A stretch of DNA of 64,000 bases from Methanobacteriota archaeon. GTDB lineage: Archaea; Halobacteriota; Methanosarcinia; Methanosarcinales; Methanoperedenaceae. The stretch covers positions 9,279 through 73,278 of the forward strand of contig CAWCBK010000017.1 in NCBI GenBank assembly GCA_963793805.1. The letters are read 5' to 3'. Below are positions 32,617-50,243 of this stretch, piece by piece; position 1 is the first letter of the stretch, and each line of letters opens with the position of its first letter. A program made the translations under genes and the position numbers. Below the pieces are notes generated by a model that ran no database searches, was not told the DNA's origin, and saw only the letters and a list, made by a program, of their open reading frames with translations.

Positions 32617-32983
32617 GGTGTGGTTAATTAACTGGATGGGATATAGGGATTGTGATATATTTTCATTCCGAACTTTTCTTCCTCATAATCATTATAACGG
32701 TTATTATTATTTAAATGATTAAATATATAAACTTCAGGATTCAATGTAAGAGATATGATGTCCAGGATAAATAGAAAAATGGTGGATATAGAAAACAGAA
32801 CGGTTGAGAATGGACATCAAATTGCTGAACAGCTGAATCTGCCAGTCACAATAAAATATAACTCAAATGATTAGCTGGCGATATACATAGAAGAGACGAT
32901 TTAGAGCTAAAATCTCAATAGAAGAGGATCAAAAAAAACTCCTGTTTTTAATGTTAATAAAAATGGGGTTAGGAGTTCAGGAA

Positions 32984-33160
32984 ATGTTAGAGACGCCACA
33001 GGAAAGAGTGAAATTATTAAAAGCAGGCATAGATTGTAAAACAATAGAGATACTATACATAACTTACAATAATTTCAAAATAGTGAGCAGTCCCGTATTT
33101 TTTGATTTTAATAGAATGCAAATACACTCCTGTGAAAAAGAAGAACAAAAATCAGAATGA
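32984..33160 (+). CDS. Small hypothetical protein
   Basis: MLETPQERVKLLKAGIDCKTIEILY...; AGGA-type RBS upstream. Confidence 0.5.
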   Translation: MLETPQERVKLLKAGIDCKTIEILYITYNNFKIVSSPVFFDFNRMQIHSCEKEEQKSE

Positions 33161-33213
33161 AAAATTTATATCTCAATGTCAATTCAAATCCTGACCAGGA
33201 TAGTGGGTAAAAG

Positions 33214-33378
33214 ATGACACGTATCGAAAAAATACAGATAGAAGAAAAGTTGAAACGAAAGAACCTCGAGATAAAAGAGCTTGAGGGACAATTAAGAAAG
33301 CAGTATGATGAGATACAGGAACTTATAAAAAAGCTGGGTAAAAGGCCTGCAAATACTGTCTATGTTCGTTCAAAGTGA
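33214..33378 (+). CDS. 54-aa coiled-coil microprotein
   Basis: MTRIEKIQIEEKLKRKNLEIKELEGQLRKQYDEIQELIKKLGKRPANTVYVRSK; heptad pattern; below the ORF-track cutoff. Confidence 0.5.
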   Translation: MTRIEKIQIEEKLKRKNLEIKELEGQLRKQYDEIQELIKKLGKRPANTVYVRSK

Positions 33379-33485
33379 GTAAGACTATAAAATATAATAT
33401 AGCTCAGGATAATTCAAGATAGGATTTAAATTTAAGACTAAGGATAGATTTTAGGGGTAGATTCCAGTGTGGATTAAGAACATAG

Positions 33486-33644
33486 CTATCTTCGAATTCC
33501 CATATAATCACTGATATTCTTGTTATTCGTTATTATAAAAGATATTTTGTTATCTGATGTGCTCCAGTCCAAAATTTCGAGTTCCTGGGTTGAATATGAT
33601 GTTTGTTTGGCTATATCTTTTGCACAATCTTTTGGGTCACACAT
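33486..33644 (-). CDS. Small hypothetical protein
   Basis: MCDPKDCAKDIAKQTSYS...; RBS GGAGG upstream. Confidence 0.35.
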   Translation of the reverse strand: MCDPKDCAKDIAKQTSYSTQELEILDWSTSDNKISFIITNNKNISDYMGIRR

Positions 33645-33875
33645 AGTTTTCCTCCGTTTAGAGTTCATACATTATAGTATATACTTATATGAATCAATTT
33701 ATATTTAGTCATGTTAATGCAAATGATTCTCATGTAAATGGAAATCAATTGATTTTATGAGGTACTCTAAGTAATCCCAACTGCTGCGACCTGATTTCTA
33801 TGAAAGAAAGAATGATCTAAAAAACCTCATAAAGTATATATAATCGCCTACACTAAATAAAATTGAGGTGAAAAA

Positions 33876-34004
33876 ATGATGTTTTCATTGAAGAGCTTCG
33901 TATTACAGCACCCGAAAATCGTGGTTGGAATAACAGTGCTCGCAATCGCATTGCTTGCTAACCCGGCAACTGCAGTGTCTCCGGTTATTGGTGTAATTTT
34001 GTAG
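33876..34004 (+). CDS. 42-aa signal-peptide-like microprotein (putative secreted peptide precursor)
   Basis: MMFSLKSFVLQHPKIVVGITVLAIALLANPATAVSPVIGVIL; RBS GAGGTG; AxA cleavage motif. Confidence 0.55.
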   Translation: MMFSLKSFVLQHPKIVVGITVLAIALLANPATAVSPVIGVIL

Positions 34005-34562
34005 CAATAACGACACAGCTTCTTAAGTGAAATCATTCCAAATTTTTATTTTTATATCTATTTTTGAGCCAAGTTTCATATCTTGTATATCTGTGGTTTG
34101 GGTATATCGGAGGGGGGCAATGATGCATCTGCGTTGTGGAGTATTTTCAAAAGCAGTAAATACATGCCTAGAAATTAAGTCAGAGATTTGTGAATAATTC
34201 ATGCTCCTAAATGTCAATAAGAAACCAGAGTTTCTCAAGATTTCGGCGCTCCTTATATAATTTAATGTAATTAATTCGATTTTTCAAAGATAATTCATTT
34301 TATATCCTTTCTTCTCCTTTTTTTAAAAAGTAATTGACTTTATTGTATACGCGTTTATTACTTCTATTCATGAGTATTATTGTTATAAGAAAAACCTAAA
34401 TACTATTAGGATAATGCAAAACCAAGGGAATATGATTAAAAACGGTATATTTGTGGAAATTTGAAAACTACAAGGGCTAGATGTTTCCATCGTTTTTCTC
34501 ATATTCAAAATAGTCGAGTGGATATCAATATAAAAGAAAGGTGGCAAGAAAGGTGGTAAAAG

Positions 34563-37355
34563 ATGACTTATAAACCTCAATATTATCCTGGCAATACTTC
34601 AGTTGCCAAGAATAGAAGAAAACATATGTCTAATAAAATAGAAAAACTGCGCGATATCTCAGATGATGATTTGACAGCAATCATGGGTCATAGAGCATCC
34701 GGGTCAGATTACCCCAGTACACATCCACCGCTTTCAGAAATGGGTGAACCGGACTGCCCGATAAGAGAGATCGTGGAACCTACTCCCGGGGCAGCAGCAG
34801 GGGACAGGATCAGATACGTGCAGTTCTCGGATTCAATGTATAATGCTCCTGGAACTCCATACTGGAGATCGTACCATGCAGCCATGAACTTCAGAGGTGT
34901 CGACCCAGGCACACTGTCAGGGAGACAAATTGTCGAGATGAGGGAAAGGGATCTTGAAGCATTCACCAAGAGGGTAAGCGAGACCGAAATAACTGACTGG
35001 GGTCTTGCAGGTATGAGGGGCTGTACAGTTCACGGCCACTCCCTGAGATTGCAGGAAGATGGCGTGATGTTCGATATGCTGGACAGGCGAAGGCTTGAAA
35101 ATGGAGTTATCGTTATGGATAAGGACCAGGTCGGAGTACCGATCGACAGAAAGGTCAACCTCGGCAAACCCATGAGCTTGGCAGAAGCTGCCAGGAGAAC
35201 CACCATCTACAGAGTGGACAATGTGCCCTTAAGAAAAGACACAGAAGTCGTCGAACATGTACAGAGACTCTGGGAATTAAGAACAATTTATGGCTTCCAG
35301 CCCGCTCCGAAGGAAACGATTGTAACAGGTGTTGCAGCTATAAAAAAAATAGATTTTTATTTAAATGATGAACATGTTGACAATTCAGGAGGGTCAGAAT
35401 TCATTTGCGCTAAACCTGGAGATGCCGACGAGTATCTTTGGTTTAGCTGGGACAGAATTCCAGGAGACCATAGTGGAAATATTGGAATTTTTCTGAAGCG
35501 ACACTATAGTATTGAATTGTTAACAGCAAGAATTGAAAAAAGTCGTGATGAAAAAACAATCAACGTCACAGATGGATTACATTCTCTTTCTATTGAACTT
35601 GATGATGAAAAACTTAAGGCAACCAAAGCATTTCTGGAAATCGATGACGGTAGAACTGATGAATTCGCTGTGAAGATGGAGGAGGGTAAGCTAAACATAT
35701 ACGCTCACGAATATCATGACAGTAATTTTGAACTGAAACTTTTTGATTCTGCGGAAGTGTATCGAACAGATGAACCAGATCTTGCTTCGGTTTTAATAAC
35801 ATTTATATTTGAGCTTCCTGCATTCGATTACGATGCTGAATATTCATGGTCTGCAATCCTTTATTCCAATATCGATTATGAGGAGGAGGCTGAAGAAGGA
35901 GGAGCTTCAGCCTATAGTATTTTCAAGACTGACTGGTCTGGTGCATTACTTAATACCCACCAAATGGTTATTAAAACGCATGAAATGACGCGATTTTTTT
36001 CAGCAGAGGAGAGTAGTTATCATGTGGAAAAAGATATTAGAATCTCTGATAACCGATTGGTATGCGCAGGGAAGGCTCCGGTGGGCTCAGGATTATGCCC
36101 TTTAGTAATTATTGGAGTTGAGGTGAGAGTTTCAGCTCTTGATGGCACTAATCAGCTTTTTTGTTTGGCCCGATTAAAAGATTGGGACCAATTTCCGCCA
36201 GGAATCCGATATTCTGTAAAACGAAGTGCTGAAAAACCACCGGTCGATTATCAGATTGCGGTCAAGACAGGTGATATACCGCGTGGTGGTACAAGAGCCA
36301 ATGTTTATATAACTCTTTTTGGAACAAATGGTTATGATGAAGAAAGACCATTGGGTGAATCATCAGGATATCCCATTGAAAAAGCAAAAGGAAAAACAGA
36401 TCGTTTTTGTATCACAAGAGCGGATTTAGGAGATATTACACATATAAGAATTCGCCATGATGATAAATATGAAAGGCCTGGATGGTATCTGGATGAAATT
36501 CGTATTCGAAATTATTGCAGCGGTAAAGAATATGTTTTTTCCTACGATGGATGGCTCGGTAGAGAAAAAGATGATGGAAGAATTGACAGAATACTCATCG
36601 AGCAATCAGTGACACCCATTGAATATGAAATCACAGTAATAACAGGTGGACTGGAAGGTGCAGGGACAGATGCCAATATCTATATGACACTTTTCGGAAC
36701 GACTGCTATTAGCGGAGAAATAGAATTTCCTGATCCAGATGAGACGAGATTTGAGGAAGGGGAAACAGCTAAATTTATTGAAAAATTACCCGTTTTAGGT
36801 GAAATCGAAAGCCTAAGAATCCGCCATGATGATACCGGGGATGACTCCCCTTGGTATCTCCATGAAATCAGAGTCAAAGATAGATCCAGAGAAATAGAGT
36901 GGATTTTTCCATGTGATAATTGGCTTGGTAAAGATGGAATCTTCGAGAGAATGCTTAATCCTATTGTAAATCCGGTCGAATATAAGATTTCAGTGAAAAC
37001 AGGAGATAAGGAAGGAGCCGGGACAGACGCGAAGGTTTATATCACTCTATCTGGAACAGAGGGCAATGATAAAGAAAGATTGTTGGATAATTCGGGTCAT
37101 GATGACTTTAGACAGGGAAAAACTGATGATTTTAACATTGTGGCTAGTAATTTAGGAGATCTTAGAGAACTTAGAATCCGCCATAATGATAAGGAAGAAG
37201 GTTCAGGATGGTATCTCGAAGAAATTCGTGTGCTTGATAAAAGTGCAGGGAAAGAATGGCTTTTTGAGTGCGATAAATGGCTTGCTACAGATGAAGATGA
37301 TAAACGTATCGACAGAACGCTTAAAGCACAATTAATTTGGACACTCGGTGGATGA
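34563..37355 (+). CDS. mcrG: Methyl-coenzyme M reductase gamma subunit fused to an unknown region and 3 PLAT/LH2 domains
   Basis: aa 1 to about 247 is McrG (YKPQYYPG..VAKNRRKHM, HPPL.EM.EPDCPIR, GTLSGRQIVE.RERDLE, RGCTVHGHSLRL..DG.MFDML, YGFQP). The C-terminus has three repeats of YxIxVxTG....GTxAxVYxTLxG...LG.I..xRIRHD......WYLxEIxV...WL (PLAT). Confidence 0.9.
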   Translation: MTYKPQYYPGNTSVAKNRRKHMSNKIEKLRDISDDDLTAIMGHRASGSDYPSTHPPLSEMGEPDCPIREIVEPTPGAAAGDRIRYVQFSDSMYNAPGTPYWRSYHAAMNFRGVDPGTLSGRQIVEMRERDLEAFTKRVSETEITDWGLAGMRGCTVHGHSLRLQEDGVMFDMLDRRRLENGVIVMDKDQVGVPIDRKVNLGKPMSLAEAARRTTIYRVDNVPLRKDTEVVEHVQRLWELRTIYGFQPAPKETIVTGVAAIKKIDFYLNDEHVDNSGGSEFICAKPGDADEYLWFSWDRIPGDHSGNIGIFLKRHYSIELLTARIEKSRDEKTINVTDGLHSLSIELDDEKLKATKAFLEIDDGRTDEFAVKMEEGKLNIYAHEYHDSNFELKLFDSAEVYRTDEPDLASVLITFIFELPAFDYDAEYSWSAILYSNIDYEEEAEEGGASAYSIFKTDWSGALLNTHQMVIKTHEMTRFFSAEESSYHVEKDIRISDNRLVCAGKAPVGSGLCPLVIIGVEVRVSALDGTNQLFCLARLKDWDQFPPGIRYSVKRSAEKPPVDYQIAVKTGDIPRGGTRANVYITLFGTNGYDEERPLGESSGYPIEKAKGKTDRFCITRADLGDITHIRIRHDDKYERPGWYLDEIRIRNYCSGKEYVFSYDGWLGREKDDGRIDRILIEQSVTPIEYEITVITGGLEGAGTDANIYMTLFGTTAISGEIEFPDPDETRFEEGETAKFIEKLPVLGEIESLRIRHDDTGDDSPWYLHEIRVKDRSREIEWIFPCDNWLGKDGIFERMLNPIVNPVEYKISVKTGDKEGAGTDAKVYITLSGTEGNDKERLLDNSGHDDFRQGKTDDFNIVASNLGDLRELRIRHNDKEEGSGWYLEEIRVLDKSAGKEWLFECDKWLATDEDDKRIDRTLKAQLIWTLGG
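36243..37328 (+). repeat. Three tandem PLAT/LH2 domain repeats
   Basis: Repeats begin at about 36243, 36618 and 36975, each with the RIRH(D/N)D and WYLxEI motifs. Confidence 0.85.
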
Positions 37356-37803
37356 GATGGAAAAAATAACAGGTTATCCGGGTATTTCAAATATATTTTT
37401 TATTTTAGCCCAAAACTCCTTTGCGATTTTGGCACAATACCGCGCCTAACAAACGAAAATACATAGGTAGCCTCAAGATTCGTGAGTTCTCGAGCCCCTC
37501 AGATACCCGATTCCTCAGAACGGTTGTCGTTGACGCAAGCCTCGAAACACAAAGAATGGCAAAACAACTGGCATCACACGAACAAGACCCCCTTCATAAA
37601 ATGCAAACCCTAGGCCTCCCTTATTTCCAAAATCCACCATGCATCTCTCCTCCTGCATCAAAAGAACTGAAAGCACGGATACCCGCGAAGTTCATAGTTC
37701 CTCAATATCGGCAGCCACGATCCTGAACACAGGCGAACCTAAAGGCGCCCCTGTGATTTCCTCAGACATAGCATTTAATCTGCGTTTATGCGGTTTATTA
37801 TTT

Positions 37804-48614: not shown

Positions 48615-49652
48615 ATGGCATCAAAAAATACAGAAAAAAACCCGCCTGCCGGGTCGAAAGTTATGTTCATCGGTGTGGATCTGGGTACGAACCATACTGC
48701 AATATCAACGAGCGAGGGTAAGAAAAACAGCATTTTTAGCGTCGTAGGGACTCCAAAAGATGCAGTTGCATCAAAATTCCTTAAAAAGGAACACCTGTTT
48801 GGTGAGGAAGCGCTCACTCACAGGGTAGCCCTGAACCTGTTTAAGCCCATCGAGGATGGCGTACTGAAAAACCAGCCTGAGGAAATAGATGCTGCTAAAG
48901 GATTAATTGAGCATGTTCTCAACTCTGTTGATGGGAACAAGGAACTAAAAAAATATGCGATTATAGGAGTACCTGCCAGGGCAAGCGTACTCAGTAAGAA
49001 GATCGTAATGGATATGGCTGATGAGTTCTTTGACGGCGTAATGGTGGCAAGCGAACCATTCTGTGTGGCTTACAAGCTTGGAAAACTAGAGCACACGCTT
49101 ATCGTTGATATAGGCGCGGGCACCACTGACCTGTGCCGTGTGCATGGGACTTTGCCGGGTTCTGAGGATCAGATAAGCACTAACAAAGCAGGGAATTACA
49201 TTGACAGGGAATTCGTCAGGCTCCTTCAGGACAGCTATACCGACGTGAGGGTAACGCTTGAGATGGCAAGGAAATGGAAAGAACAGTATTCATTCGTTGG
49301 AAAAATTGAAAAGAATATTATCGTTGAATTACCGGTTAATTCCTCTATCCTAAAACTCTCGGTCGCAAAAGAATTGAAACAGGCATGCGAATCCATTATA
49401 CCTGACATTATTTCAGGAATTTCGAAACTTATTTCGACTTATGAACCAGACTTCCAGGATACCCTGCGCTCAAATATATATCTTGCAGGCGGAGGCAGCC
49501 AGATCAGGAACCTGCCGGAAGTGCTCGAAATGCACCTTGAACTAATCGGAGGAGGCAAAGTTTCGATCTTCAAAGACCCGGTTTACGGCGGTGCAGATGG
49601 GGCTCTTAAGCTTGCAATGGATATGCCCAGGGAGTTCTGGCAGACATTATAA
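48615..49652 (+). CDS. Actin-like ATPase (MamK/MreB-related)
   Basis: GVDLGT, IGVPA, SEPF, VDIGAGTTD, KAGNYID, KE, LAGGGS, GADGALKLA.DMP..W. Confidence 0.88.
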   Translation: MASKNTEKNPPAGSKVMFIGVDLGTNHTAISTSEGKKNSIFSVVGTPKDAVASKFLKKEHLFGEEALTHRVALNLFKPIEDGVLKNQPEEIDAAKGLIEHVLNSVDGNKELKKYAIIGVPARASVLSKKIVMDMADEFFDGVMVASEPFCVAYKLGKLEHTLIVDIGAGTTDLCRVHGTLPGSEDQISTNKAGNYIDREFVRLLQDSYTDVRVTLEMARKWKEQYSFVGKIEKNIIVELPVNSSILKLSVAKELKQACESIIPDIISGISKLISTYEPDFQDTLRSNIYLAGGGSQIRNLPEVLEMHLELIGGGKVSIFKDPVYGGADGALKLAMDMPREFWQTL

Positions 49653-50243
49653 ATGCAAACGGAAATCAGGGAAGATACTAACGAAAAAATACTTGAACAG
49701 TGGCTCAGGTTCATGCTTGAGAGAGTCGGGCATAACAACCTTCCACTTCTCCTTGATCACTATGAGGATATTGGCTGGATAAGCTCGAATGTATCGGATA
49801 AGTTGATCGAACTTGCCGAATCTCAAAAACAGCGCTATGTGGGGCCTTCCTGGACGCTCTCTGCCGAAGAACACCGTGTCTCAATGCTCTTTATCGAAAA
49901 GCTCCAGGGAAAGCCCGTTGAGATATCGGTTCTTTCTACCATTGCTCCAAAAAAGGCAAAGCTGCAGCAGATTGAAAGGGCGGCTCCAAGGGAGGGTTAT
50001 ATCGAGTCGCACAGGCTTGAGAAGGAGGATCTTGAGTTTGCGGTGCAGCGCCGTGAAGTTACAATAAGGAACCTGGAGGTAGAAATTGAAAAAAAGGATG
50101 CCGATATCAGCAAGCTGAAAGAAAATATTCAGGAACTTGAGTATCAGCTAAATGAAAGCAGGGATGAGGTTAAAAACCACAGGATTTACAGGGGTGTGCT
50201 GGAAGAAAATATCAGATTGAAACAGACGGATATTGTTAGATAA
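49653..50243 (+). CDS. ArlD/E (FlaD/FlaE)-domain protein with C-terminal coiled coil
   Basis: WLRFMLERVG.....LLDHYEDIGWIS ... LSAEEHRVSMLFIEKLQG; heptad-rich C-terminus. Confidence 0.8.
   Translation: MQTEIREDTNEKILEQWLRFMLERVGHNNLPLLLDHYEDIGWISSNVSDKLIELAESQKQRYVGPSWTLSAEEHRVSMLFIEKLQGKPVEISVLSTIAPKKAKLQQIERAAPREGYIESHRLEKEDLEFAVQRREVTIRNLEVEIEKKDADISKLKENIQELEYQLNESRDEVKNHRIYRGVLEENIRLKQTDIVR

Follow-up and report, generated by a model that had tools for sequence, protein, structure and literature searches.

A fusion that joins the methyl-coenzyme M reductase subunit McrG to three PLAT domains in Candidatus Methanoperedens

Few known enzymes are as highly conserved as methyl-coenzyme M reductase (MCR). 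Why would its gamma subunit, McrG, be joined to three PLAT domains? The question is raised by a 64,000-nt stretch of contig CAWCBK010000017.1 (assembly GCA_963793805.1, positions 9,279 to 73,278 of the forward strand), which we will call the window. Its host is a Candidatus Methanoperedens, a methane-oxidizing archaeon. At 34563..37355 on the plus strand, a single open reading frame (ORF) without interruption encodes a 930-residue protein, P0001, with a complete McrG domain, a middle region, and three PLAT domains. It is a real, rare, and apparently undescribed variant of a known subunit. We tentatively propose (with a probability of about 45%) that it is an extra gamma subunit, probably from another Methanoperedens lineage, that replaces one canonical gamma and tethers MCR by its PLAT domains. 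The expression, binding, and localization of the fusion are predictions from its sequence.

The McrG domain (residues 1-247; 34563..35303, plus strand) is 83% identical in amino acids and 79% identical in nucleotides to the host's operon copies of mcrG. Residues 5-246 match the whole of Pfam's MCR_gamma profile (1-246 of 246; E = 4.6e-113), and the score against TIGR03259 is 377 bits, versus a curated cut-off of 172. The motif GTLSGRQ (residues 116-122; 34908..34928, plus strand), which we take from established MCR structures to be the loop on the coenzyme M side, is present. So is RGCTVHGHSLRL (residues 152-163; 35016..35051, plus strand), which includes His159. P0001 keeps His159 and the motifs that line the coenzyme M/F430 site (LSGR and GCTVHGHSLR), as well as 108 of the 110 columns that are invariant across 38 operon copies and 8 outgroups. 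His159 is the methylated residue in the MCR of the anaerobic methanotrophic archaea (ANME) of group 2d (PMC12413448). A first-pass annotation, made from the sequence alone, had reported an uninterrupted frame with a complete McrG, and the profile matches and both motifs bear this out. It was also right that there is no signal peptide: McrG starts the chain, and the highest mean hydropathy over 19 residues is 1.71. Its remark that the McrG part is richer in GC holds too: GC content drops at the junction, from 48% to 39% in the tail, and at third codon positions (GC3) the values are 0.49 for McrG and 0.26-0.28 for the tail.

Such an abrupt step in GC content, in a genome whose second mcr operon has frameshifts, could also mean that P0001 is an assembly chimera, or that a stop behind the McrG part was overlooked. 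We searched for the junction in seven different sequencing runs, including X1, X4, X5, and X7, and found contigs across it in X1 and X4, which come from two studies. The X1 contig (389 nt, over 35034-35405) has no differences from the window; X1 might be the source sample. The X4 contig (875 nt, over 35063-35928) has 85 differences and 11 gap letters, but its indels (+3 and net +6) keep the frame. Neither the junction in X1 nor the indels in X4 contain a stop. In X4, pieces at 88-96% identity cover most of the gene of this relative (~90% identical), and a pair of indels in PLAT domain 3 (+1 and -1) restores the frame. On 40 of 142 substitution rows and the indels outside the piece at 36121-36685, the X4 frame may be intact across the whole gene. 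X7, from a third study, has a 248-nt piece of the McrG part with one difference, which ends before the junction. Also, the fusion's McrG is distinct from each operon copy, and two more McrG-PLAT proteins are known from other sources (see below). The exact bridge in X1 and the diverged but in-frame relative in X4 contradict a chimera, and we consider an artefact of either kind scarcely credible.

The first-pass annotation had suggested a search for other proteins that combine MCR_gamma with PLAT. Among 7,993 candidates of 511-1,628 residues, 10 passed our criteria, and five of these contain a full McrG. Besides P0001, they are P0002 and P0003, which have the architecture McrG-X-PLAT with one PLAT domain each and are homologous to each other over their full length; P0004, in which an operon-type McrG is joined to an M36 peptidase; and P0005, in which McrG has an N-terminal extension of 283 residues. 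Four of the others are fragments of McrG in TPR, CHAT, TIR, or ATPase proteins, and the last carries only a mini-transposon module that is discussed below. A search of 50%-identity clusters gave 91 matches but few new fusions, because fusions cluster with ordinary McrG. Across 49 genomes of the genus, 41 have a match to McrG, but only the host genome (G000) has a full McrG in a long frame. It is also the only genome with a PLAT match in Pfam, both among the 49 and among 284 Methanosarcinales genomes. Given how scarce PLAT is in the order, three McrG-PLAT proteins are improbable as chance pairings. We found no description of a McrG fusion in a literature search that did not extend to the supplements of a preprint on Borg elements (10.64898/2026.05.22.727314), and there is none in the available parts of that preprint or of PMC9584954, PMC12413448, PMC12176620, PMC10889196, PMC13444090, PMC12180501, or PMC12660748. 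Our literature search also returned nothing on PLAT domains in methanogenic archaea, and nothing on immunogold labeling of MCR at membranes.

Is the fusion's McrG simply a copy of the host's? The host genome (2.18 Mb in 23 contigs, 66% complete) has two operon copies of mcrG, both on contig C10. The intact operon is mcrBDGA, and the other is 98-99% identical, lacks mcrD, and has frameshifts. (This second operon, at G000:C10:88516-92290, lies 36 kb from the first; its mcrBGA order is like that of some Borg operons, and its frameshifts, each of a single base, fall in mcrB, in mcrG, and at the start of mcrA and reflect either errors or decay.) The genome's mcrA and mcrB are confined to C10, and the fusion lies on C17, outside any mcrB(D)GA operon. 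We found no match by tblastn to McrA, McrB, or McrD on the window's contig, so the claim that the window lacks mcrB, mcrD, mcrC, and mcrA stands for three of the four; McrC was covered only by a Pfam scan of 47 of the window's ORFs (43 of the 65 with at least 150 residues, and four small ones), which named no Mcr family. Similarly, the fusion had been called a second mcrG copy: it is indeed an extra copy outside the operon, but it is the third, not the second. A recent duplication of the host's mcrG can be rejected, as the synonymous divergence (dS) from the host copy, 1.23, is among the highest of 41 comparisons, and 0 of 69 bootstraps group the two. Elsewhere in the genome there is a lone mcrD (G000:C23:119564-120085), 75% identical to the operon mcrD and directly 5' of an Hdr-like cluster.

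Instead, P0001 falls in a separate lineage. Its McrG forms one group with those of P0002, P0003, and L031, an orphan mcrA-mcrG pair in genome G012, in three protein trees (support of 87 by the Shimodaira-Hasegawa-like likelihood ratio test; 0.90 and 52 of 69 bootstraps; and 85/77). The last two trees omit the fragment L032, the long-branched P0005, the partial L034 and L058, and two ANME-2c-like sequences. In a DNA tree, the window copy and L031 pair together with strong support (100/96) and are nested among operon copies from a subclade to which the host does not belong. The approximately unbiased (AU) test rejected a placement with the host's own copy (p = 0.04 for DNA and 0.01 for the protein pair). 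Also, valine stands at position 124 in each of the four McrGs with tails and in 8 of 8 outgroups, versus asparagine in 38 of 38 operon copies from the genus. Position 124 lies in the stretch RQIVEMRERDLE (34923..34958, plus strand), and a DNA pattern of this stretch matched one other genome contig in the GTDB collection (L062). The genes that flank the fusion are 89-91% identical to those of G023, a member of the host's clade. The fusion's McrG was likely acquired horizontally from a separate Methanoperedens lineage, and not by duplication in the host; the first-pass annotation had missed that it belongs to this separate lineage of tail-bearing McrGs. L031 itself (G012:C23:1007-3648) consists of a divergent mcrA (86% identity) followed by mcrG, an unusual order, on a 5-kb contig without mcrB. 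Both subunits finish with similar short acidic tails (ETETP..D[ED].L) that may serve as a targeting tag.

Mcr pieces turn up in other unusual proteins. We inspected 20 of the shorter McrG matches (120 listed of 807 in total), and among these, P0315 and P0322 carry a full McrG with decayed motifs in a fused or lengthened protein. P0315 is joined to a PF13289 domain and, like P0004 and P0005, is an independent McrG fusion. McrA shows a weaker trend, with one decayed copy fused to the mini-transposon module and pentapeptide repeats (L110, G006:C106:1151-3373, a mosaic ORF in which the McrA is 59% identical), and McrB was not found in any long frame. Separately, L032 (G024:C252:3280-5223) has McrG residues 1-66 within a CHAT-type protein. 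It lies 2 kb from a gene that we labeled by eye as a group II intron-like reverse transcriptase, and retrocopying of the abundant mcr mRNA is a possible source of such pieces.

These proteins suggest two other explanations for P0001. It might be a by-product of domain shuffling, in which McrG is no more than a leader that folds and is translated well, and the gene is being lost. Besides the McrG fragments, the decayed McrG of P0315 and P0322, and the decayed McrA, the McrG-M36 fusion, which is unrelated and derives from an operon-type copy, would fit this explanation. Or it might be a bait, whose McrG mimics free gamma while the tail signals or sequesters, and which stays out of active MCR. 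The target might be a modifying enzyme, the activation component A2, or a protein from a virus or a Borg. McrG is bound by A2 (PMC12176620), free gamma exposes His159 (PMC12413448), and TIR, CHAT, and TPR/ATPase proteins, in which McrG pieces recur, have domains that are typical of conflict systems; the fast change of the tail would also suit a bait. However, no effector domain was recognized in the tail of P0001, and none of the window ORFs that we scanned next to it is a defense gene.

Selection on the McrG part argues against both. By the method of Nei and Gojobori (NG86), the ratio of nonsynonymous to synonymous rates (dN/dS) for the fusion's McrG is 0.098 against L031 and has a median of 0.104 against 41 operon copies, as compared to a median of 0.098 among 795 pairs of operon copies. 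The comparison with canonical copies that the first-pass annotation recommended thus gives a ratio of about 0.10, with no visible relaxation. The active-site motifs and 108 of the 110 invariant residues have persisted at dS of about 1, and the decay seen in other fusions is absent from this McrG. Between P0002 and P0003, McrG is 88% identical, about twice as well conserved as the middle (43%) and the PLAT domain (50%), which implies that fused proteins keep their McrG as their tails drift. The X4 relative has 11 listed codon changes in McrG, of which 6 are silent (23% expected; p = 0.023) and the others are conservative. (This count kept 31 positions across the gene; we dropped two non-coding rows and eight rows, at seven positions, whose source was either X5 or a deep contig from another copy of mcrG or of the module.) As for a bait, the buried and cofactor-lining positions are as conserved as those on the surface. 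We doubt that shuffling alone explains P0001, and we think that a bait is quite improbable.

We now turn to the tail. The three PLAT domains lie at 36249..36620, 36621..36977, and 36978..37352 (all on the plus strand), as the first-pass annotation had recognized: Pfam gives three matches to PF01477 from residue 563 on (E = 2.7e-25 to 2.9e-18). They are 38-52% identical among themselves, and the second has a net charge of -15. They are of the eukaryote type. Of 776 domains compared, the nearest belong mostly to environmental proteins and, in one case, to a bacterial protein (Gemmatimonadales). The best solved relatives of PLAT 3 are the PLAT domains of coral lipoxygenases (E = 5e-13). When aligned to 2fnq and 3vf1, PLAT 3 keeps the acidic loop residues of GTD and D-x-x-x-H-D-D-F, and PLAT 1 has lost the acidic loop residues of the lipoxygenase type. 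We presume that these acidic residues are calcium ligands in the lipoxygenase-type domain. The idea that the tail targets MCR to membranes or inclusions fared less well. PLAT 3 has polar residues in place of the W, F, and Y loop residues of 2fnq and 3vf1, and according to a review, aromatic side chains are the main driver of membrane binding by PLAT domains (PMC10889196). Because PLAT 3 lacks these aromatic loop residues, membrane tethering is possible but is not favored over binding to a protein.

The middle region (residues 248-562, about 315 residues; 35304..36248, plus strand) had been described as about 310 residues of unknown sequence. The region is there, but about 90 of its residues are a mini-transposon that is read in frame (35432..35702, plus strand), an old insertion with decayed terminal inverted repeats. 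Six of 8 bases agree between the 8-mers on its two flanks, at 35424-35431 and 35703-35710. Taken over 37 of 38 copies, the element's consensus ends can pair at 13 of 14 bases, and 4 of 37 copies have a perfect 8-bp duplication where the offsets predict one. The host genome has 16 occurrences of its domain (residues ~290-380), spread over 14 unrelated ORFs; in one of these, the domain lies within what looks by eye like the C-terminal part of a histidyl-tRNA synthetase, a housekeeping enzyme (L096, G000:C3:67260-68933). The domain also recurs in 72 of 121 genomes of the order. It is confidently predicted to be a compact domain (predicted local distance difference test, pLDDT, of 89 from 40 sequences), but Pfam has no family for it, the Atlas gave nothing similar, and Foldseek returned no match with E ≤ 0.001 from the PDB or viral libraries. 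Most likely it is a passenger. The remaining ~220 residues of the middle are acidic and gave no family or homolog. The single-sequence pLDDT of the middle region is 31; for residues 250-560, the Atlas gave PLAT-like leads that fall below the threshold (0.79).

Did a mobile element bring in this gene? Upstream of the fusion is an AT-rich stretch (32617..34562; 28-38% GC) with short ORFs only, and together they make up an island of 5.2 kb that is flanked by housekeeping genes. An exchangeable gamma could have evolved on a Borg, virus, or plasmid as a tool to grip, relocate, or throttle the host's MCR to the element's own advantage, with a copy left in the chromosome. This would fit the AT-rich island, the GC3 of the tail (below the genome's lowest decile, 0.36, across 1,106 long frames), the long terminal branches and foreign placement in the DNA tree, and the odd order and shared acidic tails of the L031 pair on its short contig; also, MCR genes were reported from 27 Borgs (10.64898/2026.05.22.727314). 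On the other hand, the neighbors are ordinary chromosomal genes, and there is no integrase or transposase among the 47 ORFs scanned. We found no Borg-type tandem arrays at the locus and no match to McrG in viral contigs, and the Borg MCRs form BDGA or BGA operons, with no fusion described in the part of that preprint available to us. We consider a mobile element's tool an unlikely explanation. None of five relatives shares the gene order across the island, and a search of metagenome contigs for the tail gave only one weak match of 32 residues. A scan for promoters and terminators was at chance level (the model is bacterial and the host is archaeal). The upstream stretch contains a 42-codon hydrophobic ORF (33876-34004, plus strand), which has no Pfam match and might be a small secreted or membrane peptide. 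Further along, a dispersed non-coding repeat of about 200 bp (37550-37790) has four more copies on contig C13 of the host genome and several in G007 and G023, and an MreB/actin-like gene is followed by a gene with an archaellum FlaD/E domain (48615-50243).

How might an extra, tethering gamma subunit work? The fusion gamma would substitute for a single canonical gamma of the host's alpha2beta2gamma2 MCR. The first-pass annotation raised this possibility, which gains plausibility from McrG being the exchangeable subunit: unlike McrA or McrB, McrG readily enters MCR of foreign origin, and it may join last or exchange (PMC9584954). In the same study, host McrG made up 30% of the gamma in recombinant MCR, and the McrG of ANME-2b co-purified with methanococcal MCR. 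The tail would leave from the C terminus of gamma, the site of short natural extensions in ANME-1 and ANME-2c, and the three PLAT domains would tether MCR to a membrane surface or to a partner protein. Instead of inserting deeply, tandem acidic PLAT domains might bind by avidity, perhaps with calcium bridges. The fusion would be made at a lower level than the operon's gamma and would mark part of the MCR pool, which we infer from its own leader and its weaker codon bias. Codon adaptation of its McrG is 0.56, versus 0.69 for the operon copy (0.56 is still at the 99th percentile), and directly 5' of the ATG, unlike in the leader of the operon's mcrG, is a duplicated purine-rich 12-mer (34534..34556, plus strand) that is likely the ribosome-binding site. 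More speculatively, Methanoperedens lineages might exchange gammas that bear tools: swapping McrG would supply a docking handle, and interchangeable tails (PLAT repeats, short acidic tags, or domains of other kinds) would set the location or the partners of MCR, the enzyme that is most abundant in anaerobic methane oxidation. We hold this broader idea well short of even odds.

Several observations weigh against an exchangeable, tethering gamma. The clade of four tail-bearing McrGs is moderately supported, and all four have long branches. V124 may be the ancestral state, and the DNA pattern of the stretch that contains it had no match in metagenome or viral contigs. Once L044 was added to the protein test, which then had three rows, grouping with the host's clade was not rejected (AU test, p = 0.07). 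Much of the path measured by dN/dS may predate the fusion. The listed changes in the tail of the X4 relative look neutral (3 of 17 codons silent; p = 0.79), and the contrast between its McrG and tail, a small and partial count, has p = 0.095 by Fisher's exact test. X4 also has a deletion-type allele in which 2,631 nt of the gene are replaced by 67; we rejected an empty site as the explanation, as the end of PLAT 3 is still present. The PLAT domains of P0001, P0002, and P0003 do not form one clade, and the middle regions of P0001 and P0002 are 25% identical, with no recognizable kinship. PLAT 3 lacks the aromatic loop residues, and the C-terminal extension of ANME-1 may hinder the assembly of hybrids (PMC9584954). 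The fusion is rare (1 of 49 genomes in the genus), and the decayed stretches of Mcr inside mosaic proteins demonstrate how often domains are shuffled in the genus; the rarity, the neutral-looking tail, and the deletion allele are what a gene that is being lost would show.

If the tethering gamma is real, then a natural gamma paralog with binding domains would mean that MCR can be regulated by subunit exchange, and the promiscuity of McrG in vitro would have a physiological use. It would bear on whether and how MCR is positioned or regulated inside ANME cells, and it would offer a C-terminal handle for immobilizing or targeting MCR. This reading is directly testable in methanogen expression hosts.

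Several known systems resemble parts of the proposal. The mini-transposon recalls the Rickettsia palindromic elements, which also have terminal inverted repeats and 8-bp target duplications and lie in frame in unrelated genes; but this parallel accounts only for residues ~290-380 and is not specific to the fusion gene. P0001 shares PLAT domains and a tandem layout with PLAT/LH2 repeats (LOXHD1-type proteins, lipoxygenases, and polycystin-1), and the identity to the repeat proteins listed is 26-51%. The PLAT domains of P0001 differ in that they lack the aromatic insertion loops and lie on a metabolic subunit in an archaeon. Borg MCR operons are, like the fusion, extra mcr genes of Methanoperedens type that have moved horizontally (10.64898/2026.05.22.727314), but they are whole BDGA or BGA operons on linear elements with tandem repeats, whereas the fusion is a lone mcrG between chromosomal genes. 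A structural counterpart is the gamma subunit of Ca. Methanoperedens MCR (PDB 9qr1 and 9qqt), which the fusion's McrG matches over its full length (E = 1.5e-144), with shared active-site motifs and His159. That subunit is a 249-residue chain encoded within mcrBDGA, while the fusion lies outside the operon, comes from a separate lineage, and has a tail of 683 residues. In the hybrid MCRs of Shao et al. 2022 (PMC9584954), as in our proposal, a gamma made apart from alpha and beta enters MCR; as described in the part of the paper available to us, these are laboratory constructs with small N-terminal tags, and not natural fusions with a large C-terminal tail. Finally, the gamma subunits of ANME-1 and ANME-2c (PDB 3sqg, 279 residues, and 9qm5, 265 residues) show that native MCR tolerates extra residues at the C terminus of gamma. 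Those extensions are 15-30 residues on the operon's own subunit, and the tail of P0001 consists of folded domains on a paralog.

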